From an uncultured Spirochaetales bacterium (lineage in GTDB: Bacteria > Spirochaetota > GWE2-31-10 > CAYYKD01), in NCBI GenBank assembly GCA_964471825.1, contig CAYYKD010000008.1:5867-69866 (forward strand): a stretch of DNA of 64,000 nt. The letters run 5' to 3'. Below, piece by piece: positions 2,439 through 62,601 of the stretch (positions within the stretch are counted from its first letter, which is position 1; every line of letters starts with the position of its first letter). The translations under genes and the position numbers were made by a program. Below the pieces are notes generated by a model, which worked only from the letters and a program-made list of their open reading frames with translations, did not search any database and had not been told where the DNA came from.

Positions 2439-3437
2439 TTAATTTTTTATAAACTCTGATGGATTCTTAACTACTCTTTCAATTGATGCTTGAGTTACGA
2501 AATATACATATGAATTGTAATCAGGTTTAAATACAAAATCATATGATTGATCATCCGAATTATATACATTGATATTTCTTGTATCTCCGTTATTCAATAC
2601 TATTTTTATAAATCCTAGATTTTTTAAACCATCAACTTTTCCATCGTATTTAAAGTTGTCTGCTTTGAATGAAATAATGGATTTAATCTGATTTTCGAGT
2701 GCGAATTCCTTCAACTCTTTTTCGATTGATGGTACTATTTCATATATTTTTTTGCCGGGTTGTGCTGGATCATCTTTTGAAGAGATTGAATAGTCCACAT
2801 TATACTTAGAACTTTTTAATGAATAGCTAATTGTTTTTACAGAATCTAAATCTATTCCTTTAATTATACTTTGATCTGTCCATTTTAAAACATCATTTGG
2901 GGTTTCTACTGCAATTAATGATTTTACTTCTCGGACAGAGTTCACATCACTTTTATTAGTAAACCCATTGTTTATAATAATATACGATGTCCCCTTCGTA
3001 GGTCCAACATTCCCTATTCTTATTTCAATGGTTTTTTTATCCATTGTAAATACAACCACTTTTTGACCGACCAGATCATCAAATCCATATCTTTTTTTTG
3101 ATTCAGGGGTTAGATTGCTTTCGATGACCATCCCTTTTTTTAGAGATTCAATAATCTTAAGATAGCCTTCAACTTTAGATATATTGGCTGGCACCTTTGA
3201 GTCTCTATAATTAACTATCCAACTATCAGCATTCTTCTCTAACTTAAATGATTTCTCTGCATCTACAATTTCCAATGAAATAATATTCTTACTAGTAACA
3301 TTTTTTAACAAAGGTCTATTCATCGAATATAGTTTAATATTCGATGAGGAAAAGATATTTAGTGTTACAAATAATATTACCTGTAGACCGACAAAAATCG
3401 CTAGAAAAATTATTAACTTTTTACTTTCTATTTTCAT
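2439..3437 (-). CDS. DUF4340-like membrane-anchored protein, the partner commonly encoded next to GldG-type ABC auxiliary proteins
   Basis: N-terminal TM helix, 332 aa, lies immediately downstream of the GldA/F/G-like ABC genes. The domain call rests on this gene context and is an inference. Confidence 0.45.
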   Translation of the reverse strand: MKIESKKLIIFLAIFVGLQVILFVTLNIFSSSNIKLYSMNRPLLKNVTSKNIISLEIVDAEKSFKLEKNADSWIVNYRDSKVPANISKVEGYLKIIESLKKGMVIESNLTPESKKRYGFDDLVGQKVVVFTMDKKTIEIRIGNVGPTKGTSYIIINNGFTNKSDVNSVREVKSLIAVETPNDVLKWTDQSIIKGIDLDSVKTISYSLKSSKYNVDYSISSKDDPAQPGKKIYEIVPSIEKELKEFALENQIKSIISFKADNFKYDGKVDGLKNLGFIKIVLNNGDTRNINVYNSDDQSYDFVFKPDYNSYVYFVTQASIERVVKNPSEFIKN

Positions 3438-3468: not shown

Positions 3469-3563
3469 GGCTGTCCACTAAGTCGGTTTATAAACGATTT
3501 TTACTCGTTTTACGCCGGCAATTAACCGGCACAAATAAAAATTTCTCGACTTAATGGACAGCC
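3469..3563. repeat. 95-nt structured palindromic element, family A copy 1 (GGCTGTCCACTAAGTCG...CGACTTAATGGACAGCC)
   Basis: 17-bp terminal inverted repeats (16/17 complementary) enclose two internal hairpins, AAACGA-N7-TCGTTT and GCCGG-CAATTAA-CCGGC. The second copy at 32562..32656 is 94/95 identical. The element is much more GC-rich than its flanks. Confidence 0.8.
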
Positions 3564-3613: not shown

Positions 3614-5245
3614 CTAAAATTGTTCTCTGATACGAGAGAGTTTTTTTCTCTTCAATATATATAGAATAAATCCTAACGCAATAAAAAGTATCGGTAAAAT
3701 ATATGTCGAAAAAACTATTACAATGTTTTTTACAATCTCAAGTACAGGCTTTGTTGTTTTATCTAGTTTTCTTTCGAACATCCCCTTACTTCTAATTTTC
3801 ATCAGATCACTGTCAGTGTGTAGTGCCTCTACTGCATTAAGGGCAAATGAAAGTTCAGTGTCTGAAACGAGTCTATTTTCATAAAAATAACTATCAACAA
3901 ATGTTTCATTTCCAACCGCTACAATCTGAGCAGTACCTGAATTTAATCTCTTGTATTCGAACTTTTCACCGCTAGAGTTTTCAGGAATCTCTTTTCCTTC
4001 AAAATAACTTTTTAATTCTCCTTGAAAATGAACAGCAAGAGAAAACTGCTCATTGCCTTCTAACCGATGAAATGCATAGTCCTCTGGTGTAATTTTTATA
4101 TCCTGTGTGTCTGCCCATGATTGTTTTGTTGTTGTAAAAAGAGTTGTCACTTTATCCTTAATAGAATCGTCAATGTTAATTGATGATGCCCAAAGTAAAT
4201 TTAACTCAGGCAAATCTGATACAATTTTACTATCTGAATTAATATTCATAGATTTTACATTAATATAGATGGGGTATCTAGCCATTTCGAGATAACCCTT
4301 TTTTGTAGATGGGATTGGATTAAATGATTCATTGTCTCCAACAATATCTCTATTTATTGTTATACCATATGATTTTAACATCTCAAATAAACCACCAAAA
4401 GAAGGCAGAACCATTGGACCACCATATGATTGATTTTCGAAGTTTATCTTAACTCCGGAAGCAGCAACCATTAAATTTCCACCCCTCATCAAAAATTGAT
4501 CAATCTGAAATAGATCGTATTCTGTTAATGCCTCACTTCCAATAACCAATAATGTCGAAATATCTTCAGGTATATTCATGCCTGTTCCAATATCAACTTG
4601 ATTCTTAAACTGTGATTTTATATAATGCTTTATGTGTCTGTAATCTCTATCCAATGACTTACCATTTAAACCGGCAATTATACCGACTGACTTCGATCCA
4701 AACTCAGCATTTATTAGATTTTTTATCTGAATCGCTATATCGAACTCAAGGCCTTCACTTTGACGAACTATTGGAATTGTTTCAGTTTTATCTTTATATT
4801 TAATTATTATTCCGGAAAAACCTAGAACTTGCTTTATTTCGGACTTATCTGATTGAACCAATGGAAACTGTCTTATCCCCTGCTCTTCTAAACCGGCGAT
4901 CTCTTCCATATGTTTTTCATAACTTAATGTCCGAATTATTACACTGATCTTTCCTCTTGAATACCCCTGCATTTCTTTCAGAATATCTTCAACATACTGT
5001 ATAACCAAAGACATATTTCTAACCTGTTTTGCCTTATCGTTATAGTAGTATTCTATAATGACACCTGTGTCGATTTTCTTAATTAAATCCTTTGTTGGTT
5101 TCGATATGCTATATTTTTGTCCTCTTGTTAAATCTAACCTGAGATACAAAAAATTAGATACGAATATTAAAAAGATAATATTTACTATAATTAAGCCAAA
5201 TATTACCCACGATTGATTTTTTTTATTTTTTACATTATCATTCAT
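3614..5245 (-). CDS. GldG-like auxiliary component of an ABC-type uncharacterised transport system
   Basis: 543 aa with N- and C-terminal TM helices and a large periplasmic region. Operon context with an ABC-2 permease and an ATPase. Confidence 0.55.
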   Translation of the reverse strand: MNDNVKNKKNQSWVIFGLIIVNIIFLIFVSNFLYLRLDLTRGQKYSISKPTKDLIKKIDTGVIIEYYYNDKAKQVRNMSLVIQYVEDILKEMQGYSRGKISVIIRTLSYEKHMEEIAGLEEQGIRQFPLVQSDKSEIKQVLGFSGIIIKYKDKTETIPIVRQSEGLEFDIAIQIKNLINAEFGSKSVGIIAGLNGKSLDRDYRHIKHYIKSQFKNQVDIGTGMNIPEDISTLLVIGSEALTEYDLFQIDQFLMRGGNLMVAASGVKINFENQSYGGPMVLPSFGGLFEMLKSYGITINRDIVGDNESFNPIPSTKKGYLEMARYPIYINVKSMNINSDSKIVSDLPELNLLWASSINIDDSIKDKVTTLFTTTKQSWADTQDIKITPEDYAFHRLEGNEQFSLAVHFQGELKSYFEGKEIPENSSGEKFEYKRLNSGTAQIVAVGNETFVDSYFYENRLVSDTELSFALNAVEALHTDSDLMKIRSKGMFERKLDKTTKPVLEIVKNIVIVFSTYILPILFIALGFILYILKRKKLSRIREQF

Positions 5246-16967: not shown

Positions 16968-18701
16968 CTAACTTTTCTTCAGTTTTTTTAAAATCTCATT
17001 TCTATTAACAAAGACCTGTTGAAATAAATTTAATATATTCATAACAGTCCAATATAATACAAGACCTGATGATACATTATAAAATATAAAAAAGAAAACA
17101 ATCGGTAACATAAACATCATCATCTTTGTTTGACTATTATTGGTTCCTGAGCTTGGAGTTAACGCACTTGTTAAAAATTGAGTTATAACCATTAATATAG
17201 GTAGTATGTGAAGTGGAATTCCATTCATACCAAACATAGCAAAGGGTATTTCTAAAATTTTATCCGGTGCTGATAGATCTTTAATCCATAAGAAAGAAGA
17301 ACTTTTTAACTCAACCATATTTACTAACAATTCATACATTGCAATAAGCAACGGCATCTGTAATAGTAATGGTAAACATCCGCCTAGCGGATTGATGCCT
17401 GATTTTTTGTAGAATTTCATAGTTTCTTCATTTAATTTTTGCGGGTCATCCTTAAACTTCAACTGTAATTCTTTTAACTTTGGTTGAACATCCATCATTT
17501 TTTTCTGTGAAACCATACTGGAATGTGTAAGCGGTGCGAGTAATAATTTTATTAAAAATGTAATAATAATAATTGCCAATCCGTAATTTTTAACAATACT
17601 ATAGATATAGGAAAGGCCCCATCCAATAACATTACCGATACCAAAAAGAATGCTTCTTTCTAGTTTATTTATCTTAGAATTAATAATTGAATTATCTCCA
17701 AATTTTCTGTTTTTATTGTAATCGCCCAGCACACTACCAACTTTTGGACCCAGATAGATATTAAAACTAGCATTTGCAACTGACTTAGATAACTCTCTCG
17801 TATAGCCTGTATAATATTTATTATTATCCTTCTGTCTATAATCAAAAAAGTATCTATATCTTTGATTGTCTGATAAAATAGCAGTTGCAAAATAATGTCC
17901 ATTATTTACTACCCATCCATCAATATTTTGAGGAATCTTATCATTAAATAAATATTTGTCAGGAAAGGATTTTTTATCATTAAACTTAACATCTACTATT
18001 TTTTTCCCATCGAAATATGAGAGAAAGTTTTTTAGTTTCTTGTCGTTTTTTTCGTTAACAATACCTAGCGTAGGCCCCCATCCAATACTAAATGATGAGT
18101 TGGAATTATCAAACGCCATTACTTCAGACTTAGAGTTACTGATTTCTATATCACATTTAAATACAAACTCATCTTTATAGAAAGTAAAAATCTTTTTAAC
18201 TGTATAGATTGATTCTGTTTCAATATTTTTAAATGTTGAAGTAAAGACAAATTTATTATCATCCCGTTTAAATACGAAATAATCATTTCCATCGGTTAAA
18301 CTATCAAGTGTTATATCACTATCCCAACTTCCTAGTTTTAACAACAAACCACCATCTCCATCTGTTCCATAATTAATATGATGTAATACTGAGCCATCTC
18401 TATTTAAAAATGTGTCTTTAATGAATGCATCTGTTACAACAGCACCCTTTTCAGAAAATATTAACTTGATATTTTTATTTTCATAGGTTAATAATGACTG
18501 ATCATAATATCCTCTCTCAGTTAGAGAAGTAAATTTTGATGTTTTTTTTACCTGATTGTTGTTTACTAAATTAGGAATATCAGGTTGAATTTGAGTTTGT
18601 TCAGGTTTGATTGCAGCATTTTGAGGTTGCCAAAAAATCCAATAGGCAGTAAATAATAATGCCATAATAACCATAAAGTAAAATGATTTGTTTGTGTCCA
18701 T
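16968..18701 (-). CDS. yidC: Membrane protein insertase YidC (long, diderm-type with a periplasmic domain)
   Basis: 577 aa. Conserved C-terminal 5-TM core; follows yidD, rnpA and rpmH. Confidence 0.85.
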   Translation of the reverse strand: MDTNKSFYFMVIMALLFTAYWIFWQPQNAAIKPEQTQIQPDIPNLVNNNQVKKTSKFTSLTERGYYDQSLLTYENKNIKLIFSEKGAVVTDAFIKDTFLNRDGSVLHHINYGTDGDGGLLLKLGSWDSDITLDSLTDGNDYFVFKRDDNKFVFTSTFKNIETESIYTVKKIFTFYKDEFVFKCDIEISNSKSEVMAFDNSNSSFSIGWGPTLGIVNEKNDKKLKNFLSYFDGKKIVDVKFNDKKSFPDKYLFNDKIPQNIDGWVVNNGHYFATAILSDNQRYRYFFDYRQKDNNKYYTGYTRELSKSVANASFNIYLGPKVGSVLGDYNKNRKFGDNSIINSKINKLERSILFGIGNVIGWGLSYIYSIVKNYGLAIIIITFLIKLLLAPLTHSSMVSQKKMMDVQPKLKELQLKFKDDPQKLNEETMKFYKKSGINPLGGCLPLLLQMPLLIAMYELLVNMVELKSSSFLWIKDLSAPDKILEIPFAMFGMNGIPLHILPILMVITQFLTSALTPSSGTNNSQTKMMMFMLPIVFFFIFYNVSSGLVLYWTVMNILNLFQQVFVNRNEILKKLKKS

Positions 18702-19411: not shown

Positions 19412-19637
19412 AAAAAAACTCCTATATATACATAAAAAAACATTTAATTTAAAATAAAATCTTCAAAATTGAGAGTTGCGAATATATCATTTTTTATATA
19501 TATGTGTCAAGTATAATTTAGTATTGAAAATCTTGATAATCACTGAATATCAAAATAATCAACCTTTAAGCAGATATTAGAGATACTGTAGTATCAATTG
19601 TCTTTAAAGAATAATTAATATTTCGCAATAAATAACT

Positions 19638-19934
19638 TTAATCAATGTCAAATGACCCGAATTTAAATTTAATATCTATAATATCAGATAGTTGAGAAAA
19701 GGCAATAATTTTTTTTAGTAATTCGGATTTAAATTGATTTAAAGTTGTTACCCAGCCGGGATGATTACACAATATAATTAAAACATTTTTATCAATTTTT
19801 TCAGGTTTTGTAACTTGATATATTTTTTCACCGGCAATTTCTTTCCATTTTGTTTGAATTTTTTTTAATTTAAAATCTACAAAAAGATTATTTTTTTTTA
19901 AAATTTCATCAAGTATATTTTTTAAATCCTCCAT
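19638..19934 (-). CDS. dciA: DUF721/DciA-like protein (candidate replicative-helicase operator)
   Basis: 98 aa directly downstream of recF in the dnaA-dnaN-recF operon, with a W-EIAGE...HP..WV..L-type pattern. The assignment rests on context plus weak motif evidence. Confidence 0.5.
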   Translation of the reverse strand: MEDLKNILDEILKKNNLFVDFKLKKIQTKWKEIAGEKIYQVTKPEKIDKNVLIILCNHPGWVTTLNQFKSELLKKIIAFSQLSDIIDIKFKFGSFDID

Positions 19935-19974
19935 ACAGCACCTCGATTGTTAATTATAGACTTTAAAAAAAATA

Positions 19975-21051
19975 TTATAGATTTATTACATTAATATTTT
20001 CTTTGTTTTTAATAAATTTTATAAATCTATTATCTGTAAAAGTTGCAAATACCTGTTCATTATTAAAAATTTCATTAAAAATATGTTCCTGCCTAAATAG
20101 ATCTAATTCTAAAATTACATCATCTACCAGTAAAATTGGACTCTGATTAAATACTTCACTAAATATATTTTTTTGTATTAATTTAATAATCAATGAGGCT
20201 AATCTGCATTGTCCGAGTGAACCATATTTGTTAAATTGTGCACCATTTAACATAAAAAGATAATTATCCCTATGAATTCCAAAACACATATGGCCGATTT
20301 TAATAGATTCGCTTCGTTTTGATAAATAATAATTATAATAATTCTCTGCAGTAAAGTTAGAGTTATTGTTTTTTGATATATTTGGTAAATAGAGAACTTT
20401 AGTATCAAGATTAAAATTACCGATATTCTTAAAATAATCTGTAAATAAAGATGAAAATTTATCAATAAAGATATGCCGCTTAGTTGATATGTATTCAGAT
20501 TTTGATGCCATTTGAAAATCATATACATCAAGCATTTTAATGTCTGATGAATTTTTTAAAAGAGAATTTTTTTTTCTGAGTAGATTATTATAGTCGCGTA
20601 AATTGGCAAGGTATACACTATCTATCAGGCATAATATTAAATCAAAATATTCTCTTTTATATGTAGGTTGACCTAAAATTATGTTTAAATCCTGTGGTGA
20701 GAATAAAACTGTTAATAATTCACCAAGTATTGCAGAGTACTTTGAAACCTTTTTATTATTAATAAAAACTTCTTTTTTGGTTTTATATTTAATAGAGATA
20801 TCTTTAGATATACTATTTTTTTCAAACGATAAATTTATATAAAAACTATCTGTTTGATTTTTTATTAACTCATTATCTTTATATGATCGAAATGACCGTA
20901 AATACGAACTATAATATATTGATTCCAATAAATTTGATTTACCTGTACCATTTTGACCAATTATAAAATTGTAGGGTTTGAGTTTAGTAAATTCCAAATG
21001 ATAATTACTGTAATTTCTAAAATCATTTAAGAATAATTTAGATATTATCAA
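19975..21051 (-). CDS. recF: DNA replication and repair protein RecF
   Basis: Walker A GQNGTGKSNLLESI. Conserved position after dnaN. Confidence 0.85.
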   Translation of the reverse strand: MIISKLFLNDFRNYSNYHLEFTKLKPYNFIIGQNGTGKSNLLESIYYSSYLRSFRSYKDNELIKNQTDSFYINLSFEKNSISKDISIKYKTKKEVFINNKKVSKYSAILGELLTVLFSPQDLNIILGQPTYKREYFDLILCLIDSVYLANLRDYNNLLRKKNSLLKNSSDIKMLDVYDFQMASKSEYISTKRHIFIDKFSSLFTDYFKNIGNFNLDTKVLYLPNISKNNNSNFTAENYYNYYLSKRSESIKIGHMCFGIHRDNYLFMLNGAQFNKYGSLGQCRLASLIIKLIQKNIFSEVFNQSPILLVDDVILELDLFRQEHIFNEIFNNEQVFATFTDNRFIKFIKNKENINVINL

Positions 21052-21060
21052 AATATTAAA

Positions 21061-22182
21061 CTATGATTTACTCATTGGCATCATAATATAGATATAATCA
21101 TTGTTATCTTGTTCTTTAACTGTAATAGTACTATTTGAATCTTTAAATTCAAAGATAGTATATTCTGTTTTGATAACGGATAGGACATCTAAAATAAAAG
21201 TATAATTCAATGCTACTTCAAAGTCGTCACCGCTATATTCTACTTCAATAACTTCTTTTCCGGAACCATGAGAAATATCTTCTGTGCTTATTTTTATATA
21301 ATTACCTGATAAACTAAAAAGAATTTTATGTGATTCTTTATCACCCATAAGTGCAATTCTATTTAATACTTTTTGCATTAAAGATGTTTTTATTTTAAAT
21401 GTTCCGGTTTGATCTGTTGGTATTACTTTTTTGTACGGTGGAAAATCTCCATCTAATAGATTAGAAATAAAGTAATAATTGTCAATTTTAATGTGAATGT
21501 TTTTTTCTGAGAATCCTATTTTCACATCTCCATTGTTTTTTGACAATTTAAGTACTTCTTGTAATATTTTTGGAGGTACAATAATTCCATTTTCTAATGA
21601 ATTTTTTATATCAAACTCTTTTTCAATAAATGATAATCTCTTACCATCAGTAGAAACCATTCTTATAAAATTATCAATTGTTTCAAAATATAATCCGCTG
21701 ATAAATCTACGGTTTTCAGTTAGTGATACAGAAATTATTGTTTTCTTTATCATATTAGAAAAAACATCTTGCGGTACAGAAATAAATTCTATGTCATTCG
21801 GTTGATCTATTCTAGATAATTTTTCAGGATCAATTGTTTTTAAAATATATTGACTATTTTTATTATCCTTAGGATTTATTAATAATTGACCATTTTGATT
21901 TGATTCTATTGATATTTCATTACAATCAAAACTTTTTACTATGGAATAAAATTTATTACAAAATACAGATGTTTCCCCTTCTTCAATTTGTTCTATTTGA
22001 CATTCTCCAAGAAAATTAATTTTTGTTTCAAATGCAGATAATTTCATTGTATTATTTGATACCTGGATTAATACATTAGAGTTAAAGGATATACTGTTTT
22101 TTGCAGAAATAATACTATCAGCTATACTTAGCATTTCGATTAAAGTTTGTTTCATACATATAAATTTCATTTTTTTCTCCAT
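21061..22182 (-). CDS. dnaN: DNA polymerase III beta sliding clamp DnaN
   Basis: 373 aa. Position between dnaA and recF, and three-domain clamp architecture. Confidence 0.85.
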   Translation of the reverse strand: MEKKMKFICMKQTLIEMLSIADSIISAKNSISFNSNVLIQVSNNTMKLSAFETKINFLGECQIEQIEEGETSVFCNKFYSIVKSFDCNEISIESNQNGQLLINPKDNKNSQYILKTIDPEKLSRIDQPNDIEFISVPQDVFSNMIKKTIISVSLTENRRFISGLYFETIDNFIRMVSTDGKRLSFIEKEFDIKNSLENGIIVPPKILQEVLKLSKNNGDVKIGFSEKNIHIKIDNYYFISNLLDGDFPPYKKVIPTDQTGTFKIKTSLMQKVLNRIALMGDKESHKILFSLSGNYIKISTEDISHGSGKEVIEVEYSGDDFEVALNYTFILDVLSVIKTEYTIFEFKDSNSTITVKEQDNNDYIYIMMPMSKS

Positions 22183-22491
22183 AATATTTTAATAGTATTT
22201 ATTAAAAATTTGATTGTTATTAACAATCTCTTATATCTATCTTAATCTTATAAATTTAGTAGTAGTAGTAGTAGAGACTGTAAATAAGTTAATAACCCAT
22301 CTAACTACTTGGTTTTAATAAAATTAAATAATACAAAACCGGTTAATAAATTCGCAGACTTATTCACATTATTAACAATTACAAATTCTATTAACAGGTA
22401 TTTGATAACTAGTTAACATATTATAAAATAATAAAAAACACAAACAATTTTTCATTATTTGAATATAATTTTGATAAATGAATAAGTTTAT
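22183..22491. promoter_or_regulatory. dnaN-dnaA intergenic region with DnaA-box-like 9-mers and a (TAG)6 microsatellite; candidate oriC module
   Basis: TTATTCACA at 22352..22360 matches the TTATNCACA consensus. Several TTATTAACA/TGTTAATAA variants are also present. TAGTAGTAGTAGTAGTAG lies at 22258..22275. Confidence 0.4.
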
Positions 22492-23910
22492 TTATTGCAA
22501 TTTTTTTAAAATTAATTCGATATCTTTTTTCGTTTCTTGAACAGTATCTATCATATCACCTATTTTTTTGGTTGCATGCATAACTGTTCCGTGTTCTTTG
22601 CCTCCAAAATATGCACCTATTTGTGTTGTTGATAATCTTGTTTCTTTTCTGCTAAGATACATTGCGATTTGTCTGGCCATTACAATTGACTTTGTTCTTT
22701 TTGTTCCTGTGAGATCATGAGATTTTAAATTATAATATTCGGCTACTCTTGTAATAATTGTATCAACTGATATTGGTGAATTATGTGCTTCATTAATTTT
22801 ATCTTTAAGTTTATCTTTGACAATAGCTAATGTAATTGGTTTTTTCATTATACTATAGTATGCCCGTACTATTCTAAATGATGATTTTAAATCCCTTATG
22901 CTTCCTGATATATTTGTAGCAATATATTCAAGAGCCTCATTGTCAATTTTAATTTCAAAGGAATCTTTTTCATTTTTTAGAATTGCCATTCTAAGTTCAA
23001 AATCCGGCGGTATCAGATCAACATTTAACCCCATACCAAACCGTTGTCTTACTCTTTCTTCTAAATTTGACACCTGTTTAATTGGTTGATCACAGGAAAA
23101 AACCATCTGTTTAAAGTCGTGATAGAGTTGATTAAATGTATGAAAAATTTCTTCCTGCATCATACTCTTGTTTTCAAAAAATTGAATATCATCAAGGAGT
23201 AAAACATCAACTCGTCTATACTTCATTCTAAATTGAGGCATTTGTTTTTTATTAAGATGTTCGTAAAAATCATTTCCAAACTCTTCGGAGGTTGTGTACT
23301 TAACAATTTTATCTGGATATGTTTCTTTAATATATTTTTCAATAGATCTAAGCAGGTGAGTTTTTCCTAATCCGCTACCTCCGTAGATAAAATATGGGTT
23401 GTATTCTAGTCCGGGTTTTTGGGCGACAATTCTTGCTGATTTAGCTGCAAACTCATTTGAGTTTCCTATTACAAAAGAATCAAAAGAATAATCCTCAGTA
23501 GAATCACTTTGATCTGTGCCTTCTCTAAGAATTTGAAGTGAATTGATGGAGTTGGATCCTGTGGATTCCGTGTCAGATAATTTATTTTCTAAAAAAGAAA
23601 TATCATCTGATATCTGTTTTTCTTTAATTAAACTTTCTACTTCAACGATATCTTCGTATTTTTTTGTAATAAATGATATAGAACACTTATAGCCAAATAA
23701 TCCCGATAGACATTGTTCAATTTCAGGTGCTAGTTTAAGTATATTATCCTTAATGAAATTTGAAGCTACAGACAAGGTCATAATTTTCAGATCTTCATCA
23801 TAGGTTTCAAATTTAATTCTTTTGATCCACAGATTAATATCGTTTGTAGATATAAGCCCATCAAGGTTTTTAACAGTTTCATTCCAAAAAACCGAGTAAT
23901 CTGATCCCAT
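22492..23910 (-). CDS. dnaA: Chromosomal replication initiator DnaA
   Basis: AAA+ Walker A GGSGLGKTHLL. The C-terminal DnaA-box-binding domain is present. Confidence 0.95.
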   Translation of the reverse strand: MGSDYSVFWNETVKNLDGLISTNDINLWIKRIKFETYDEDLKIMTLSVASNFIKDNILKLAPEIEQCLSGLFGYKCSISFITKKYEDIVEVESLIKEKQISDDISFLENKLSDTESTGSNSINSLQILREGTDQSDSTEDYSFDSFVIGNSNEFAAKSARIVAQKPGLEYNPYFIYGGSGLGKTHLLRSIEKYIKETYPDKIVKYTTSEEFGNDFYEHLNKKQMPQFRMKYRRVDVLLLDDIQFFENKSMMQEEIFHTFNQLYHDFKQMVFSCDQPIKQVSNLEERVRQRFGMGLNVDLIPPDFELRMAILKNEKDSFEIKIDNEALEYIATNISGSIRDLKSSFRIVRAYYSIMKKPITLAIVKDKLKDKINEAHNSPISVDTIITRVAEYYNLKSHDLTGTKRTKSIVMARQIAMYLSRKETRLSTTQIGAYFGGKEHGTVMHATKKIGDMIDTVQETKKDIELILKKLQ

Positions 23911-24452
23911 TTATCCCTCATTTTTGACAAGTTATTAACATTTGAATTCATATGCGTTCTAAAAAAGAATGATAAATTCTAAATTCAAAACAATAAACAT
24001 CTAGTTGAAAATCAACAAGTTAAGAAAATGTCAATAGTAATAAATATTATAAAAACAATTTGTTTATAACTTATTAACAACATATTGACAAAGTTATTTA
24101 ACATGACGATTGATATTCTTTATAAATTTAAAAGTAAAAAAAATCAATCTTTAAAAAACTTAAAAATTGAATATATATTTGTTTATTGATTTTCAACAAG
24201 TTATAATGAAAATATTTACCGGTTATTAACAGGAAAAAATATCACTATTTATTAGAAAATAGAAATTTTTCTGAATTTGATTAAATTCAAGGGAATTTGA
24301 CAAATTTATTTAAATTCAATTGTTACTCAAACCATAATGTAAAATTAATGCTAAGGCGATTGTAAAAAAGGATACAATATTTTTGAAGAGCATCTTTACT
24401 AAAAAGGATAATTATTATATACATCGTTAAAGACAAAATAACGGAGGTTGGT
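23911..24452. promoter_or_regulatory. AT-rich dnaA-upstream / icd-upstream intergenic region; candidate oriC with degenerate DnaA boxes and repeated ACAAGTTA motifs
   Basis: A 542-nt non-coding region with multiple TTATTAACA variants. The 17-mers TTGAAAATCAACAAGTT (~24004) and TTGATTTTCAACAAGTT (~24188) are repeated. Confidence 0.45.
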
Positions 24453-25667
24453 ATGAAAAAAATTGAAATGAAAACGCCGATAGTTGAATTAGATGGAGAT
24501 GAGATGACTCGAGTGTTGTGGCCGCATATAAAGGAAAAACTCATACAACCATTTATCGAATTAAAAACAGAATATTACGATCTTGGGCTTGTCAAGAGAG
24601 ATGAAACAGATGATAAAATCACAGTAGATGCTGCGAATGCAATAATTAAGTATGGTGTTGGAGTCAAAAATGCAACAATAACTCCAAATGAGGAGCGGGT
24701 AAAAGAATATAATCTAAAAAAACAGTGGAAAAGTCCGAACGGAACTATTAGGGCTATGCTTGATGGAACAGTATTTAGAAAGCCAATAATTGTTAAAAAT
24801 GTACAACCATCTGTAAGAAGTTGGAAAAGTCCGATTATTGTTGGAAGACATGCCTATGGTGATGTATATAAATGTGCAGAAATCTATGCTGCAAATGGTG
24901 GTGAGCTTAAAATTTCGGTTACAGATAAACAAGGTGTAACAGTAAATGAAACTATTATTAAAGTAGATGAACCGGCTGTTGTACTCGGAATGCATAATAC
25001 AATACCTTCTATAGAGAGTTTTGCAATATCATGCTTCGAGTACGCACTGGATCAAAAAATTGATATCTGGTTTGCTACAAAGGATACAATATCTAAGATC
25101 TATGATCAGACATTTAAAAAGGTTTTTGAGGATATTTTCAATAAAAAATATAAATCTAAGTTTGATAAATTAGGTATAAGTTATAATTACACGCTGATTG
25201 ATGATATGGTTGCAAGGTTGGTAAAATCAGAGGGGGGGTTTCTTTGGGCATGTAAAAACTATGATGGAGATGTTATGAGTGATCTTGTTGCCTCAGCATT
25301 CGGAAGTCTTGCAATGATGACCTCAGTCTTAGTTTCTCCTAAAGGGTATTTTGAATATGAAGCTGCTCATGGAACTGTTCAGAAACACTACTACAAGCAT
25401 CTAAAGGGAGAGAAAACATCAACAAATCCTGTCGCTCTAATATTTGCATGGAGTGGAGCATTAAGAAAGAGGGGTGAGCTTGACAATATAACTGAGCTTG
25501 TTCAGTTTGCAGATATTCTTGAGAAAGCAGTTATAGATATTATAGAATCCGGAATTGTTACCGGAGATATTGCATTAATCTGTGAACCTAAAGCTGTCAA
25601 GACTCTTAATTCCCTAGAGTTTATAGACGCAATAGCTTCTAGATTAACAGCATTAATAAAGGTATAA
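24453..25667 (+). CDS. icd: NADP-dependent isocitrate dehydrogenase, homodimeric type II (eukaryote-like subfamily)
   Basis: N-terminus VELDGDEMTRVLW...SPNGTIRAMLDGTVFR...IVGRHAYGD is typical of subfamily II IDH. Confidence 0.9.
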   Translation: MKKIEMKTPIVELDGDEMTRVLWPHIKEKLIQPFIELKTEYYDLGLVKRDETDDKITVDAANAIIKYGVGVKNATITPNEERVKEYNLKKQWKSPNGTIRAMLDGTVFRKPIIVKNVQPSVRSWKSPIIVGRHAYGDVYKCAEIYAANGGELKISVTDKQGVTVNETIIKVDEPAVVLGMHNTIPSIESFAISCFEYALDQKIDIWFATKDTISKIYDQTFKKVFEDIFNKKYKSKFDKLGISYNYTLIDDMVARLVKSEGGFLWACKNYDGDVMSDLVASAFGSLAMMTSVLVSPKGYFEYEAAHGTVQKHYYKHLKGEKTSTNPVALIFAWSGALRKRGELDNITELVQFADILEKAVIDIIESGIVTGDIALICEPKAVKTLNSLEFIDAIASRLTALIKV

Positions 25668-26794: not shown

Positions 26795-27925
26795 ATGTAT
26801 AGGAAAATATCAATCTTGATATTTATATGCGTAGCAACTTTGATATCTTCAAATGAGATTAATAAAGTTGTGAATGATGTTACCAATGATGTTATCAATA
26901 ATACTACCGGAACTACTGTTGATAATGTTATAGTTGAAAGTGTTGATGAAAAGAATATAAAAAAAATATATATAGATAAACTAGACTCAGATAAAATTGA
27001 CTCAGATAATAAAGACATTGATAAAAAAGACATTGATAAAAAAGACGTTGATAAAAAAGATAAGTTAACCAATCAAGAGAAAAAATTATTAAAGGAACAA
27101 AAAAAAGAGATAAAAAAAGAAGAGAGGCTATTAAAAAAGGAACAAAAAAAGGAAAAGAATAAGGAAAAAGTATTTATAAGGAATCAGAAGAAAGAGTTAC
27201 AAAAAGAACTGAATGCTAAAGAAAAAGAAGAAGCACAGTTAAAAAAAGATGAGAAAAAGTTTATTGGCGGTCTGACATTCGCAGTTGGCGGTTGTTTTTC
27301 AGATGTAAGTAATTCATATCTATTTAGATATTCACCTGTATATACAGATGATATCCCGGTTATAAATCAAATTGTTAAAAAATTTAACGCCCCTGTGTAC
27401 CTTTCAAACTTAGCCGGATTTGATACTTCTTTTATGGTTGCCTTTTCATATTATAAGAAAAAAAACTCATCTATGGGATTTGTTAATAGAATCGGGTATA
27501 AATTTCTTTTGACTGATCCATTTAGTCATTTTATTTTTGATAAACAGTTTAGGATACTTAACACATTTTTTACAACACTGGAAATAAAAAATACGATAGG
27601 TAGTTTTGATAAAAACACCTTTTTATTTATGACTAGCGGGTTCTATTTCTCTGTTTTTTTTCAAAACTATAGTCCTGAGAAGGAAAGGGTTCTTCCATAT
27701 GGTGTTGGAATTGGCCCAACTTCAGAGATAGGACTTGAATATCATAAAAATAATTTTGTATATAAAACATCAATCTATTGTAATTTTATTTTTAGGCTAC
27801 GAGGGAAATACGAGGATTATCTAACTGACTCAGATCTGTTCATGGAGATAGATATTGGTGTATCACATAAGTTTGGATATTTGACAAAAAAAAGATTTAT
27901 AAAGGAATCTAACAAAAAAAATTAA
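26795..27925 (+). CDS. Secreted repeat-containing protein (DIDKK tandem repeats, K/E-rich coiled segment, C-terminal beta-rich possibly OM-associated domain)
   Basis: Signal peptide, 15-nt tandem repeats around 26980..27070, then a KEQKKEIKKEERLLKKEQKKEK segment. Confidence 0.45.
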   Translation: MYRKISILIFICVATLISSNEINKVVNDVTNDVINNTTGTTVDNVIVESVDEKNIKKIYIDKLDSDKIDSDNKDIDKKDIDKKDVDKKDKLTNQEKKLLKEQKKEIKKEERLLKKEQKKEKNKEKVFIRNQKKELQKELNAKEKEEAQLKKDEKKFIGGLTFAVGGCFSDVSNSYLFRYSPVYTDDIPVINQIVKKFNAPVYLSNLAGFDTSFMVAFSYYKKKNSSMGFVNRIGYKFLLTDPFSHFIFDKQFRILNTFFTTLEIKNTIGSFDKNTFLFMTSGFYFSVFFQNYSPEKERVLPYGVGIGPTSEIGLEYHKNNFVYKTSIYCNFIFRLRGKYEDYLTDSDLFMEIDIGVSHKFGYLTKKRFIKESNKKN

Positions 27926-31795: not shown

Positions 31796-32293
31796 TTATC
31801 TTCTAGTTTGATTAATTAATAGTTCTTTAATCTGTAATAACTCGTCTTTATGAAGGTTTAATTCTTTCAAAATTGTATTTACACCGGATCTATTTATATC
31901 ATCACCGGAAATTGAAATATTAGTAGAATTGTGATTTGGATTATCCTGAGTAGTCTCTATAAAAAAATCATCCTTAAAATCCTCAGAGAACATTTTAAAG
32001 ATTGATCTGATTTTATCCTTTGTATTCTCAATAAACTCAAACTTAGGTTTATACAGTGAAATTCGTTTCTTAAAAGAATCGTATATTTTAAACAGATCTT
32101 TTTCATTAGCACATTGCTGTTTTGCAGTATTAAATTCGTCAATTATACCATCAAGCTCTGCTTCAATAGAGATACACATCTTACAGTAAGCAGAGACAGA
32201 TATATTTAACTCCTTGGCAAATTTTTGTATTGTTTCTCTTGTTCCTTTTGGAACCAGTAATGTTATTTTTTCAATGTTATTGTTAGAAATCAT
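31796..32293 (-). CDS. Hypothetical protein with N-terminal ribbon-helix-helix-like segment
   Basis: ITLLVPKGTRETIQKFAKELNISVSAYCKMCI resembles CopG/Arc-type RHH. The C-terminal region is unknown. Confidence 0.35.
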   Translation of the reverse strand: MISNNNIEKITLLVPKGTRETIQKFAKELNISVSAYCKMCISIEAELDGIIDEFNTAKQQCANEKDLFKIYDSFKKRISLYKPKFEFIENTKDKIRSIFKMFSEDFKDDFFIETTQDNPNHNSTNISISGDDINRSGVNTILKELNLHKDELLQIKELLINQTRR

Positions 32294-32561: not shown

Positions 32562-32656
32562 GGCTGTCCACTAAGTCGGTTTATAAACGATTTTTACTCG
32601 TTTTACGCCGGCAATTAACCGGTACAAATAAAAATTTCTCGACTTAATGGACAGCC
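32562..32656. repeat. 95-nt structured palindromic element, family A copy 2
   Basis: 94/95 identical to 3469..3563 (single C/T difference). Flanked by a TGATAATAT tandem decamer at about 32490..32520. Confidence 0.8.
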
Positions 32657-32775: not shown

Positions 32776-33624
32776 ATGAATATAAAGATAAAAAATGAGA
32801 CCGGACGGCTCAAATCAGTAATATTGGGTATTCCACCAAAGATTATGGCAGATGAAAAAAACCACGATGATTTTACGGAACGAGACATCAAACAGAACTA
32901 TGAGATCAAGTCATTTAAGAAGGTCCTGGTAGAAAACGGTGTAGAAGTAGTTCGTCCTAAGAGAATAAAAAATATAGAACATAAACTACAGATATTTACA
33001 AGAGATATAGGATTTGTTATAGATAAGTATTTTATTAAAGGAAATATGCGTGTAAATGATCGAGCCTATGAGTTTGAAGCTCTTAAAGACATTATTAAGG
33101 ATATAGATAAAAATCACATCTTAACACCACCGCCTGAGGCGGACATAGAGGGTGGGGATGTAATTCTGTGGAACGACTATATATTTGTCGGACTTAGTGC
33201 AAGAACTAATTATAGGGGCTATGAGTTTATTAAAAAATCTTTTCCCGATAAAGAGGTGATACCATTTGAGGTGTACCTTTCAAGCGATGAGAGACGGAAT
33301 ATTCTGCATCTTGATTGTACATTTCAACCTATTGGGAAACATCATGCCCTGATCTACGATTGCGGTTTTGAGAGGCCACCCGATCCGCTATATGACTTAT
33401 TTAAAGAAAAGAATCTAATAAGGGTTCATGCGGATGAGGCATTTCATCTTGCAACAAATGTTTTTTCAATATCAGAGGACCTTCTGGTTAGTGAAAAAGG
33501 TGCAAAACGGGTAAACAATGAACTAAGAAAAGCAGGTTTTAAAGTAATAGAGGTTCCGTATTACAATGTAATAAGATGCGGCGGCTCTTTTAGGTGTTCA
33601 ACACTTCCGCTTGAGAGAAAATAA
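32776..33624 (+). CDS. Amidinotransferase-superfamily enzyme (dimethylarginine dimethylaminohydrolase / arginine deiminase-like)
   Basis: C-terminal catalytic-Cys motif CGGSFRCSTLP is typical of this superfamily. Confidence 0.55.
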   Translation: MNIKIKNETGRLKSVILGIPPKIMADEKNHDDFTERDIKQNYEIKSFKKVLVENGVEVVRPKRIKNIEHKLQIFTRDIGFVIDKYFIKGNMRVNDRAYEFEALKDIIKDIDKNHILTPPPEADIEGGDVILWNDYIFVGLSARTNYRGYEFIKKSFPDKEVIPFEVYLSSDERRNILHLDCTFQPIGKHHALIYDCGFERPPDPLYDLFKEKNLIRVHADEAFHLATNVFSISEDLLVSEKGAKRVNNELRKAGFKVIEVPYYNVIRCGGSFRCSTLPLERK

Positions 33625-37648: not shown

Positions 37649-39562
37649 CTATTGTGAGACTATCCTGTCTGCATAGTCATTCCAGCCGAAAGCGGCTTTG
37701 TAAGCATCCACAGAACCTGCGGGGACTTTAATATTTCCGGGTGTATTCTGAAATACCAAAACACTCATTGAAGGCGGTGTTGTCGGCATAACAATTATTT
37801 CTGCAAGACTTATACAACCATAGAATGCATAATTCCCAATAGATGTAACACTATCCGGTATAGTAACCGAAGTCAGATTTGTACAACGATAGAATGCATA
37901 ATTCCCAATAGATGTAACACTATCCGGTATAGTAACCGAAGTCAGATTTGTACAACGATAGAATGCACCATAGTCAATAGATGTAACACTACTTGGTATA
38001 GAAATCGATGTAAGGCTAATACAATCTCCGAATGTCCCATCCCCAATAGATGTAACACTATTCGGTATAGTAACCGATATCAGACTTGCACAATCTTGGA
38101 ATGCATAATCCCCAATATATGTAACACTATTCGGTATAGTAACCGATGTCAGACTTATACAACCATAGAATGCATAATTCCCAATAGATGTAACACTATC
38201 TGGTATAGTAACCGAAGTCAGATTTGTACAACGATAGAATGCACTGTGATTAATATTTGTAACACTACTTGGTATAGAAACCGATGTAAGGCTAATACAA
38301 CCTGCGAATGCACCATAGTCAATAGATGTAACACTATTCCCAATAGTAACCGATGTCAGACTAATACAATCTTGGAATGCACCATTCCAAATAGATTTAA
38401 CACTATCCGGTATAGTAATCGATGTAAGACTAATACAATCTTGGAATGCACCATTCCAAATAGATTTAACACTATTCGATATAATAACCGATGTCAGACT
38501 TAGACAACCTTGGAATACATAAGAATAAATACCTGTAACACTATCCGGTATAGTAATCGATGTAAGACTAATACAATCTTGGAATGTCCCATCCCCAATA
38601 GATGTAACATTATTCGATATAATAACCGATGTCAGACTTAGACAACCTTGGAATGCATAAGAATAAATACCTGTAACACTATCCGGTATAGTAACAGATG
38701 TCAGATTAGTACAACCTTCGAATGCGCGCTGCCCAATATCTGTAACACTATCCGGTATAGTAACCGATGTCAGACCTAGACAACCCTGGAATGCACCGGA
38801 CTCAATAGATGTAACACTATCGCTAATTACAAAACTCTTCAATGAAACATAATGTCTAAAATTATACGAGACCCTTTCAGTAATTACTGCATCTTTCATG
38901 TCTACCGATAGGAGTCCGTTCACAATAATAGTTTTTTTTAGATGGTCTATGTCGTCTTTGTTTAGGGCTACACCTTCCGCAGTAGTTATAATCAGATTTT
39001 TTTCGGTCATTCCATTAAGTAATGAACCCAGGGTGCCAGCGGCAGATACATTTACTGTTTTCAAAGAATTATCATCCGCTGAACCCCCTCCGTCTTTACC
39101 ATCTTTTGCCAATATCTGCCAAGCTGAACCATCATAGATATATGATATGCCCTCTGTCAAATTGTAATATGCCCACCCGCCAACAGGATTTAAAGGTGCA
39201 GTAGCTAAGCCGCCTTTCCATAGTATAATGTTATAAACAACGGTATTAACTGATGATCTTGTCATACCGGTTTTATACGCAATAGCTTTTAAGGTCATTG
39301 TGTTATTTACTAACACTTCACTATCATATATTAGTCCAACAGTTTCAGTCGGTTCACTACCATCAATTGTATACCTTATAGTTGCACCGGTAGTCTCAGT
39401 TAAAATAACTACAGTTTGTTCACCAAAGTATTGCCCGGCAATTTGACTGAATGAAGGTGTAGAAACTGTATAACTCCCGCCATTTATATTATTTGTTTCA
39501 TTCATAGAACATGATAAAGTAACTACAAGAACCAGGAGTCCAAAAATCTTGACTTTAAACAT
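37649..39562 (-). CDS. Surface lipoprotein with BspA-type leucine-rich repeats and an N-terminal chitobiase/Fn3-like domain
   Basis: Lipobox (VVTLSCS). About 15 consecutive 22-aa repeats of type SLTSVTIPDSVTSIGNYAFYGC, encoded by near-identical 66-nt units. Confidence 0.8.
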   Translation of the reverse strand: MFKVKIFGLLVLVVTLSCSMNETNNINGGSYTVSTPSFSQIAGQYFGEQTVVILTETTGATIRYTIDGSEPTETVGLIYDSEVLVNNTMTLKAIAYKTGMTRSSVNTVVYNIILWKGGLATAPLNPVGGWAYYNLTEGISYIYDGSAWQILAKDGKDGGGSADDNSLKTVNVSAAGTLGSLLNGMTEKNLIITTAEGVALNKDDIDHLKKTIIVNGLLSVDMKDAVITERVSYNFRHYVSLKSFVISDSVTSIESGAFQGCLGLTSVTIPDSVTDIGQRAFEGCTNLTSVTIPDSVTGIYSYAFQGCLSLTSVIISNNVTSIGDGTFQDCISLTSITIPDSVTGIYSYVFQGCLSLTSVIISNSVKSIWNGAFQDCISLTSITIPDSVKSIWNGAFQDCISLTSVTIGNSVTSIDYGAFAGCISLTSVSIPSSVTNINHSAFYRCTNLTSVTIPDSVTSIGNYAFYGCISLTSVTIPNSVTYIGDYAFQDCASLISVTIPNSVTSIGDGTFGDCISLTSISIPSSVTSIDYGAFYRCTNLTSVTIPDSVTSIGNYAFYRCTNLTSVTIPDSVTSIGNYAFYGCISLAEIIVMPTTPPSMSVLVFQNTPGNIKVPAGSVDAYKAAFGWNDYADRIVSQ

Positions 39563-42030: not shown

Positions 42031-42077
42031 GAGGCAGTTGCAAAAAAAAAATTTTGAATTTTTGCAAGAGTCTCATC
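42031..42077. repeat. Palindromic intergenic repeat, family B copy 2 (reverse orientation)
   Basis: Reverse complement GATGAGACTCTTGCAAAAATTCAAAATTTTTTTTTTGCAACTGCCTC. Lies 41 nt upstream of the NarL-type regulator start. Confidence 0.65.
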
Positions 42078-44432: not shown

Positions 44433-44729
44433 TAGAGTTGAAACTAAACAACCGGACAAATTTTATTATTATAGGGTACCTCTAAATACCATATATTCTG
44501 AATTAAAAAACCAAAAGTCCATACTTTAATGGAAATCATACCAACTCAGATACCTATATGGCACTTCAAATCCCGAGAATATCGAAGTGCCTTATATTTT
44601 TTAGTAAAATTGTTTACCTTTTTCATTTTTTTTATTAATAGTCATAGATATAAAATCAATAGTCATAGATATAATTTCGTGTGATTTTTTAACAGCATTA
44701 TTTGTTTCGAAAAATGGAGAAGTTTAAAA

Positions 44730-49384: not shown

Positions 49385-49761
49385 TAAATATCCTTAGTAC
49401 TTTATTAATAATAGTAAATTTAATATTATAATTATTGTAATAAATCAAGATATTTTGTATATTTATTATACTATGATAACATAGTAACAGCAAACTAATA
49501 TTTAACCAATGTATAGTTTGGGTTTTGATAAATATTAACATAATCCTGGGCGCTTAGATAAATAAATTTATTATAGTTTATTATAGGGTACTTCTAAAAA
49601 CCTTATATTTTAAGGTTTTTACAAGCTCAAACCTATTCCTATACCTATATTGCATTCTAAATATAAAGAATTTAGAATGCAATATAATTATCTTAGGATA
49701 AATTTGTTGATTTTTTTAGCATTGTGATATAGAATATTAAAAGTAAAAATAGGAGTCGTTT

Positions 49762-52607: not shown

Positions 52608-52847
52608 ATATTTATCTACCGGGGGCTGTCTAAAAAGATGAATTCTCACACGGCACTCACATAGTATAATGGAGAAACCAAAATAATGGTAAATGTCTAC
52701 TTATTCTATATGAGTTCCGTGCGGAACTTTTTGGACACCCTTTTTTTTGTCATTTCATAAAATTTATGAAAAATGTTGTTTTTTTTATATTCCGGTATTA
52801 AATTGTACAAATTGAGAGTATGACTTTCATTTTCGGAGGATTTCTGT

Positions 52848-58990: not shown

Positions 58991-59188
58991 TTATACGACA
59001 TAAACTAAACATTAACTAAAATGTAGATGATGGTGACCTAAAGGATATTATCAAGAGTATATCAATATAACATTTTAGAAACCTATTTGCGGATATAGGA
59101 TATGGATTTAAGATGCCAGAATATTGTATTGTTTTCGATAACTATGTGAGTAGTGCCGTTCGAAGGAGCGGCATTATTATTTATAGAA

Positions 59189-59431
59189 TTACCCTATAAA
59201 TTGAATTACTATCTGAAACTCATCTTGAAGGATTATAAAGTTTTCGATAACAATGTTAAATTTTATTATTGCTTCTTCCATAATTTCCATAAACAGGGAT
59301 TGCGTTTCCTCTGAGCAGAGTTGTTTTGCTGTTTCCGGTACAAGGCTTGATTTTACAAAATATGTTCCACCTTCTATTTTTTCGCGGTTTTTTCTCATGG
59401 TCTCTCCTCGTTTTATTTTGAAGTTTGTCAC
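59189..59431 (-). CDS. Small hypothetical protein; weak resemblance to the N-terminal half of IS200-like (Y1 HuH) transposases, with the HuH histidines replaced
   Basis: GGTYFV... and ...KFNIVIENFIILQDEFQIVIQ loosely parallel YHIVF ... ILE..MPDHVHLL of IS200 TnpA. 80 aa, truncated. Confidence 0.2.
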   Translation of the reverse strand: MTNFKIKRGETMRKNREKIEGGTYFVKSSLVPETAKQLCSEETQSLFMEIMEEAIIKFNIVIENFIILQDEFQIVIQFIG

Positions 59432-59870
59432 TTTTTAATCATCCAGAGTTAATTAAGCAATATGCTATTTGTTTAAAAATGTTAAAAATAATTAAATACA
59501 AATTACTAAAATCAATTATTACGGATTATTACGGATTTTTTATTTGCAAAAAAAAAAAAAATCAGATACAATATTAAAATATTAATTTGTTATTAAAGAA
59601 GAGGCTCTTAGAAAAATCATTATTTTTGCCGGATTAGGAACAGATGGGTCGAGTATATGACCAAGTACAATGCTGTTAGGTGAGTACATTTGACAAAAAA
59701 GAATGTTCTGCTATCGAACACATCAAGTATGACACTTGTTTTTGATACTATAAAAAATAACGATGAGATTTCGATTTAACGAAATTTAGCAGGGTCCTCT
59801 ATAATCTGTAGTTTTTATGCAGATGTTAATAAGAGATTTATATAAATAAACAAGATTAGGGAGTATTTAA

Positions 59871-62558: not shown

Positions 62559-62601
62559 GAAGCTCTTGCAAAAATTCAAAATTTATTATTGCAAGAGCCT
62601 C
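62559..62601. repeat. Palindromic intergenic repeat, family B copy 3
   Basis: GAAGCTCTTGCAAAAATTCAAAATTTATTATTGCAAGAGCCTC with 10-11-bp perfect arms. Lies between convergent genes. Confidence 0.7.

Follow-up and report, generated by a model that had tools for sequence, protein, structure and literature searches.

The REP family of bacterial repeats carries a 5' motif of the GTAG type, and REP/BIME sites bind IHF or gyrase. In Escherichia coli, REP/BIME sequences also lie inside operons, as between malE and malF, where they place a stable stem-loop between co-transcribed genes that could shield the upstream mRNA from 3' exonucleases and uncouple gene expression. PATEs, which derive from IS200/IS605, have subterminal hairpins and insert beside a fixed target of 4-5 nt, and single-strand Y1 transposition has a known strand bias. 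REPIN copies run to tens or hundreds per genome. REPINs of 71 and 110 bp fold as hairpins in single-stranded DNA or in mRNA (PMC3116915). A census of MITEs found the Spirochaetes to be rich in them, with an average of 145 per genome (PMC11602168).

The window, by which we mean the whole 64,000-nt stretch of DNA that was analysed, holds two copies of a 95-nt palindromic element (Table 1). No other 95-nt pair in the window was reported by the repeat finder, which put their identity at 99%. Aligned, they share 94 of 95 bases, lie 29 kb apart in the same absolute orientation and differ solely at element position 62 (C3530 in copy 1, T32623 in copy 2), so that repeat finder and alignment both agree with the original prediction of two 95-nt copies differing by one C/T base. 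Its terminal inverted repeats were also recovered: the 17-nt arms sit exactly at the ends of the identity block, are complementary at 16 of 17 positions (the mispair is C3478/A3554 in copy 1) and surround a 61-nt core with two small hairpins. A search with the arm GGCTGTCCACTAAGTCG and its near-complement gave the four expected sites and no others in the window; at a tolerance of up to three mismatches the chance expectation is 0.04 matches, and 0 of 100 shuffles reached four. The element is non-coding, with stop codons in all six frames. Its GC content had been put at about 45% in a background of about 28%; the measured values are lower for the copies (41% and 40%) and higher for the window (31.6%). 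The excess is confined to the arms (53-59%), the interior being at 33%, and about 8% of all 95-nt segments of the stretch equal or exceed the element's GC.

Table 1. Coordinates of the element, of the hairpins compared with it and of associated features. Positions are those of the window unless another locus is named.
Feature	Position	Strand	Basis or detail
Copy 1, 95-nt palindromic element	3469..3563	+	repeat finder, folding
Copy 2, 95-nt palindromic element	32562..32656	+	repeat finder
Left terminal inverted repeat	copy 1 3469..3485; copy 2 32562-32578	+	GGCTGTCCACTAAGTCG
Right terminal inverted repeat	copy 1 3547..3563; copy 2 32640-32656	+	CGACTTAATGGACAGCC
Inner hairpin 1	3492..3510	+	AAACGA-TTTTTAC-TCGTTT; folding
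Inner hairpin 2	3514..3530	+	GCCGG-CAATTAA-CCGGC; folding; last base C3530 / T32623
Imperfect hairpin, 117 nt, after tRNA-Met	52624..52740	+	termini GGCTGTCTAAAAAG ... CTTTTTGGACACCC; then T8
17-mer hairpin loci	L017 7509-7548; L023 1710-1765; L010, L014, L019; L001 5838-5975; L003 4578-4715
Second-family palindrome copies	2387-2430, 42043-42076, 62563-62601; L050 9138-9200
gldG-like to DUF4340 spacing	window		176 nt
gldG-like to DUF4340 spacing	L050 (GldG-like 58% identical)		17 nt, with ribosome-binding site
gldG-like to DUF4340 spacing	L056 (GldG-like 44% identical)		4-nt gene overlap
gldG-like to DUF4340 spacing	L054 (GldG-like 43% identical)		120 nt, holds an unrelated A+T-rich palindrome
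Truncated Y1_Tnp/RAYT-like ORF, 80 aa	59189-59431	-	HMMER, homologue match to PF01797

The block of identity is exactly 95 nt long, and within it identity is uniform over stems, loops and unpaired spacer. The 60-nt flanks of the two copies match at 14 of 60 and 21 of 60 positions, which is background for A+T-rich DNA. Because the flanks are unrelated, a segmental duplication that takes in flanking sequence, the origin that had been held up against a functional or mobile element, is excluded. No direct repeat is present at either copy (flanks CACGA and CCGATA at copy 1, GGAGGGG and ACATTC at copy 2), and no target-site duplication of any length was found at either copy or hidden inside the identity block. 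Since the copies are 99% alike, decay cannot account for the missing duplication. The uniform 94/95 identity with its abrupt drop at the flanks fits recent copying better than selection on structure, and on balance we lean towards reading the element as a short, non-coding, non-autonomous mobile repeat of a MITE- or REPIN-like kind that was copied recently within the chromosome.

The 176-nt spacer that contains copy 1 is bordered by a GldG-like ABC_transp_aux gene (3614-5245, minus strand) and a DUF4340 gene (2439-3437, minus strand). These belong to a four-gene unit that encodes an ABC ATPase, an ABC-2 permease, the GldG-like protein and DUF4340, with copy 1 downstream of the first three; the gene context is thus the GldA/F/G-DUF4340 operon in which the copy had been placed. 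On the coding-strand path the copy begins 50 nt past the gldG-like stop (3614), and the DUF4340 start (3437) lies 31 nt beyond it, with a GAGGAG ribosome-binding site in those 31 nt. A consensus scan found no promoter-like site between copy 1 and the DUF4340 start. The single terminator-like match near the copy (minus strand, 3470 to 3445) shares the last two bases of the element and enters the ribosome-binding site. With 31 nt and a ribosome-binding site separating copy 1 from the DUF4340 start, the element would be read through in the operon mRNA, and judged from this gene layout DUF4340 can be expressed only if transcription passes through copy 1. In the operon mRNA the element would form a stem-loop of about -47 kcal/mol that, like the REP sequences of E. 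coli, could make the transcript more stable or lead to its processing.

The closest GldG-like protein, 58% identical, comes from another organism of the same sample. That organism (L050 and L051; JGI Ga0207193_1001567; GCA_964608985.1) has 35% GC and carries the same four-gene ABC-transporter unit with different neighbouring genes. The next GldG-like matches are 41-45% identical, and some are from source-named Spirochaetes or Spirochaetota MAGs. The "gliding" gene names do not imply a Bacteroidota host, and the host is probably an uncultured spirochaete lineage. In these relatives the spacing of the gldG-like and DUF4340 genes (Table 1) suggests that tight coupling is probably the older state and that the junction tolerates inserts. 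The spacings are compatible with an insertion at copy 1, the relatives being too distant to fix its exact boundaries.

Copy 2 lies in a 482-nt spacer between divergent genes, a 165-aa gene (31796-32293, minus strand) and a DDAH/ADI-fold gene (32776-33624, plus strand), in keeping with the divergent promoter region near an amidinotransferase-like gene reported for it. The start of the plus-strand gene is 120 nt away and that of the minus-strand gene 269 nt, and promoter-like matches for both neighbours, weak ones to the consensus, lie between the element and each gene. An A-run precedes this copy and T-rich sequence follows it. The scan gave no terminator-like site at copy 2 and, apart from the match that overlaps its last two bases, none inside or directly behind copy 1; no T-run stands directly after either copy on either strand.

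The window also has a cluster of dciA (19638-19934), a recF-like gene (19975-21051), dnaN (21061-22182) and dnaA (22492-23910), with yidC at 16968-18701. GC skew changes sign, at its minimum, at about 22-24 kb, next to dnaA. From this skew switch beside dnaA, dnaN, recF, dciA and yidC, a chromosomal replication origin appears to lie inside the window, at 19600-24500. Both copies are within 20 kb of the predicted origin and, in their shared absolute orientation, occupy opposite replichores.

The window is identical to ENA contigs k141_283487 and k141_363036 (ERZ27262924), and it differs from the JGI contig Ga0207193_1000141 (sample 3300020048, 122 kb) by just two small indels, which lie away from the copies. 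The two copies, with their individual position-62 bases and flanks, recur in the JGI contig and in the two ENA contigs, which stem from a different assembler. A Logan contig enters copy 1 from the flank and ends 28 nt inside it; Logan contig ends were set aside as evidence of copy number, being uninformative, as other contigs break outside the element.

We searched for further copies and relatives at several levels. The copy count is two in the 79 kb of contig examined (the window plus 5.9 kb to its left and 9.4 kb to its right). An Rfam/Infernal search, named at the outset as a check, was run and matched no family to the element: at gathering thresholds over the window only tRNA was returned, and the best permissive-mode score was 17.8 bits, with the threshold at 45. 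When GTDB representatives, JGI metagenome contigs and IMG/VR were scanned for the exact arm, no two-arm match came up apart from short terminator hairpins; the source contig was itself not returned and apparently lies outside the scanned set. The matches were single-arm and due to chance, except for terminator hairpins in Bacillales. Viral contigs contained no match to an interior 18-mer or to either of two two-arm patterns. BLAST of the 95-mer against phages and plasmids gave just a 27-nt match (E = 0.2) in Ligilactobacillus plasmids, which we treated as noise. The concatenated six-frame peptides of the element, compared with 5.8 billion proteins to catch mis-called ORFs at other copies, scored nothing, and a covariance model of the two copies, run on the window, on the extensions of the contig and on the loci of relatives, picked up no diverged copy. 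An apparent 140-nt relative in a Draconibacterium locus (L015) was rejected as chance, its predicted fold leaving the arms unpaired. By inspection, remnants of integron attC sites, retrons, CRISPR and group II introns were dismissed as well, the core motifs being absent and no partner genes lying nearby. A literature string search for the arm sequences returned no papers. No cognate insertion sequence with element-type ends (GGCTGTCCAYTAAGTCG) was found in the 79 kb examined, and no transposase with matching ends either there or in the arm scans of GTDB representatives, JGI contigs and IMG/VR.

The window holds other repeats. A second family consists of the palindrome CTCTTGCAA, about 17 A/T-rich bases and TTGCAAGAG; all three window copies lie downstream of genes, and the palindrome is 84-89% conserved in the L050 organism, whose GldG-like protein is 58% identical. 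This suggests a putative conserved terminator or protein-binding site. At least 14 tandem 69-nt repeats (37737-38933) are found in a 637-aa gene (37649-39562, minus strand) for a BspA-type leucine-rich-repeat protein, and a 15-nt tandem repeat (26976-27073) lies inside ORF 26795-27925. At 26976-27073 the JGI contig has about 43 extra bases and fragmented gene calls; the difference is either population length variation or an assembly error. A tandem TACGGATTAT motif with a poly-A run occupies 59519-59566, where the JGI contig differs by an indel of about 30 nt; the string TTACGGATTAT also occurs in the gldG-DUF4340 spacer of L054. A 32-nt intergenic direct repeat (44466-44497 and 49578-49609, 91% identical) and a 22-bp near-perfect palindrome (49641-49691, 91% complementary) may be operator-like sites.

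On the plus strand, the RNA of the element is predicted to fold at -37.6 kcal/mol (z = -6.9 against shuffled sequences) into the terminal stem plus two inner hairpins. Both internal hairpins of the original prediction are reproduced in this fold, and so is its three-way junction; the minus-strand RNA (-46.6 kcal/mol, z = -9.9) is instead a rod with no three-way junction, and that part of the claim holds for one strand. The DNA fold has z = -6.2. Per base, no other structure in the window's intergenic DNA (about 10 kb) is as stable as the folds of the element. With C62T, the only other substitution, copy 2 has G46-U62 on the plus strand but C-A on the minus strand; in the arms it is the plus strand that has the C-A mispair and the minus strand that has G-U. 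The latter wobble had been read as a hint of a minus-strand RNA; C62T favours the plus strand, and the two signals cancel. Because the two transitions preserve pairing on opposite strands, the sequence carries no signal of RNA-level selection. Random mutation of a DNA palindrome would be expected to give just such a pair of transitions, each favouring a different strand.

The sequence after tRNA-Met (52621..52740) had been proposed as a diverged relative of the element. The hairpin at 52624-52740 is stable (z = -6.2) and terminator-like, and its termini match the element arms at 11 of 14 positions each, so that the likeness is limited to some 14 nt per terminus; the interior does not align and the covariance model of the element does not detect the hairpin. 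The window as a whole shows no enrichment for the arm 14-mer at three mismatches or fewer (6 matches outside the family against about 4.8 expected), and by a rough, post hoc estimate two such matches would end one hairpin in about 1% of cases by chance. A distant relationship to the element is possible. Elsewhere, the GTDB scan gave 23 exact 17-mer matches, 7 of them in Bacillales and mostly in Planococcaceae. All seven sit behind an unrelated housekeeping gene, with the 17-mer as the 5' arm of a hairpin of the terminator type (Table 1). In Planococcus koreensis, at L017 7509-7548, both arms surround an 8-nt loop, with A- and T-runs flanking, and this hairpin scores 34 bits with the covariance model of the element; BLAST of it against phages and plasmids gave nothing. 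The 5' arm also opens terminator hairpins in Viridibacillus, in another Planococcus and in Bacillus sp. N9, which has two copies of a composite, about 115 nt long with GGGGCTGTCC and GGACAGCCCC at its ends, behind a ctpA-like and a menE-like gene. With 596 Gb scanned, about three chance matches in Bacillales alone are expected by a rough estimate, and one dispersed hairpin family matched once by chance would yield several loci. The link to Planococcaceae may thus be a coincidence, or the arms may be a terminator-like or mobile stem module.

These data bear on several alternatives to a mobile repeat. As the source is a metagenome contig, the second copy could be an artefact of assembly. The presence of both copies in two separate assemblies makes this unlikely, and with JGI and ENA contigs agreeing on position-62 bases and flanks and a Logan contig running into copy 1 from its flank, we regard it as scarcely credible. 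A structured small or cis-regulatory RNA, with the stem and two hairpins as its fold and near-identity kept by purifying selection, would explain why the element has the strongest structures in the window's intergenic DNA on both strands (z = -6.9 and -9.9), and copy 1 would have to be transcribed within the operon mRNA in any case. Against this, the two strands are predicted to fold differently, conservation in loops and spacer equals that in stems, the two substitutions keep pairing on opposite strands, and neither an Rfam family, even in permissive mode, nor a homologue in the relatives' loci was found. The position relative to the downstream gene also varies, from 31 nt at copy 1 to 120 and 269 nt at copy 2, where the promoter-like sites, though weak consensus matches, would put the element outside both 5' UTRs. 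Such an RNA is in our judgement unlikely. The DNA itself might be what the host uses, as a cruciform or a protein-binding palindrome with copies kept alike by gene conversion; the DNA fold, the location of both copies within 20 kb of the predicted origin and the lack of target-site duplications are in its favour. Identity over 95 nt at two sites 29 kb apart far exceeds what a binding site needs, however, the element is absent from the same loci in relatives and no candidate binding protein is evident, which leaves a host DNA site improbable.

Two further alternatives draw on the terminator-type hairpins. The element could be a terminator stem with an expanded loop, akin to the hairpin beside tRNA-Met and to the Planococcaceae terminators. 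The P. koreensis hairpin with both arms and a short loop, the 5' arms that open terminators in Viridibacillus, another Planococcus and Bacillus sp. N9, where the genes ahead of them are unrelated, the similar termini of 52624-52740 before T8 and the A-run and T-rich sequence around copy 2 all point that way. Yet a G+C-rich stem followed by a T-run, the feature of intrinsic terminators, occurs in the 52624-52740 hairpin but in neither copy on any strand, and the one scan match near copy 1 has just two bases in common with the element. Copy 2 lies between divergent gene starts, where a terminator would serve no purpose, expression of DUF4340 requires read-through at copy 1, and the 17-mer match may itself be a coincidence given 596 Gb scanned and some three chance Bacillales matches. 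A terminator origin thus seems to us improbable too. Highly doubtful is the broader proposal in which the 17-nt arms serve as recognition module for a hairpin element moving across phyla without target duplication, with solo terminators in Planococcaceae, a 61-nt cargo in the spirochaete and a second cargo beside tRNA-Met. If that were true, the stem module would be mobile and handled by a single-strand enzyme (HUH/Y1-type) or a new one.

A candidate partner for a mobile repeat had been seen in the IS200-like remnant at 59189-59431. The identity of this fragment stands. The ORF is the N-terminal half of a Y1_Tnp-like protein (NCBIfam REP_Tyr_transpos, E = 0.037), and its 159-aa homologue P0112, 68% identical over the shared part, matches PF01797 at 2.6e-9. 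A HMMER search with the ORF gave four clear relatives (E 1e-10 or better), two of which match Y1_Tnp; a word-based protein search returned only the ORF itself, and no solved structure matched it by sequence. As we read them against the E. coli RAYT sequence, the homologues have E-F-Q in the place of the HUH motif, and they may form an inactive or domesticated branch. The proposed tie to the element did not hold up: the ORF is truncated, lies 26 kb from the nearest copy, has flanks with no similarity to the element and is followed just downstream by a single-copy 13-bp hairpin of its own (59149-59178) that is unrelated to it. It is not a credible partner.

For the mobile repeat that we favour, an enzyme encoded elsewhere would recognise the inverted termini, or the hairpin formed by the whole element in single-stranded DNA, and would move or copy the 95-nt unit into intergenic DNA. 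The lack of a target-site duplication at either copy favours an enzyme without staggered cuts over a DDE transposase; an example would be an enzyme of the HUH/Y1 kind that works on hairpins in single-stranded DNA, as with REPINs. We infer mobility, the class of enzyme and any mRNA effect from these features. The recent MITE/REP-like mobility first proposed is partly supported, by the discrete repeat, its unrelated flanks and its anatomy; the absent duplication and the absent matching transposase count against it, as do a total of two copies in 79 kb and arms that are not self-palindromic and are without the GTAG motif of classical REPs. Opposite replichores with the same orientation are also not what a Y1 strand bias predicts, a weak argument at n=2. 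If the element is mobile, it is a further repeat family that leaves no target duplications, from a deep, uncultured spirochaete lineage, and in that genome it can also be used as a marker in strain typing and of assembly breaks. Copy 1, in a conserved four-gene ABC-transporter operon, is a natural test of what an inserted stem-loop does to expression.

Among known systems the closest kind is that of the bacterial MITEs (Correia/NEMIS of Neisseria, RUP, ERIC; catalogued in PMC11602168), together with REPINs. As in MITEs, the element is short (95 nt, within a range of 50-800 bp), non-coding and intergenic, with terminal inverted repeats of 17 nt (at least 10-15 bp in MITEs), unrelated flanks and a long hairpin if transcribed. 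It departs from them in having no 2-10 bp target-site duplication at either copy, no parent insertion sequence found with the same ends and two copies in 79 kb. With the RAYT-mobilised REPINs (PMC3116915) it has in common a length in the range of about 70-110 bp, the predicted folding of the whole unit into a single long hairpin, an extragenic position and the lack of target duplication. Its arms, on inspection, are unlike REPINs in that they are not palindromic REPs and show no GTAG-type 5' motif. A Y1/RAYT-like ORF is present in the same window, as in REPIN/RAYT systems, but it is truncated and not flanked by the element, and its full-length homologues have, by our reading, E-F-Q at the HUH position. 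PATEs are likewise small, non-coding, hairpin-bearing and free of target duplications; the inverted repeats here are strictly terminal, unlike theirs, and the left flanks, CACGA and GGGGG, share no motif. With the E. coli REP/BIME sequences there is no sequence similarity, and the likeness of copy 1, a predicted stem-loop between co-transcribed genes, serves as a working analogy. The element resembles the MITE and REPIN families and is a proven member of neither. Current understanding is unchanged by it, such repeats being common in bacteria and in Spirochaetes in particular; most likely it is an ordinary small mobile repeat, a real but ordinary feature, MITE/REPIN-like rather than a classical DDE-type MITE.
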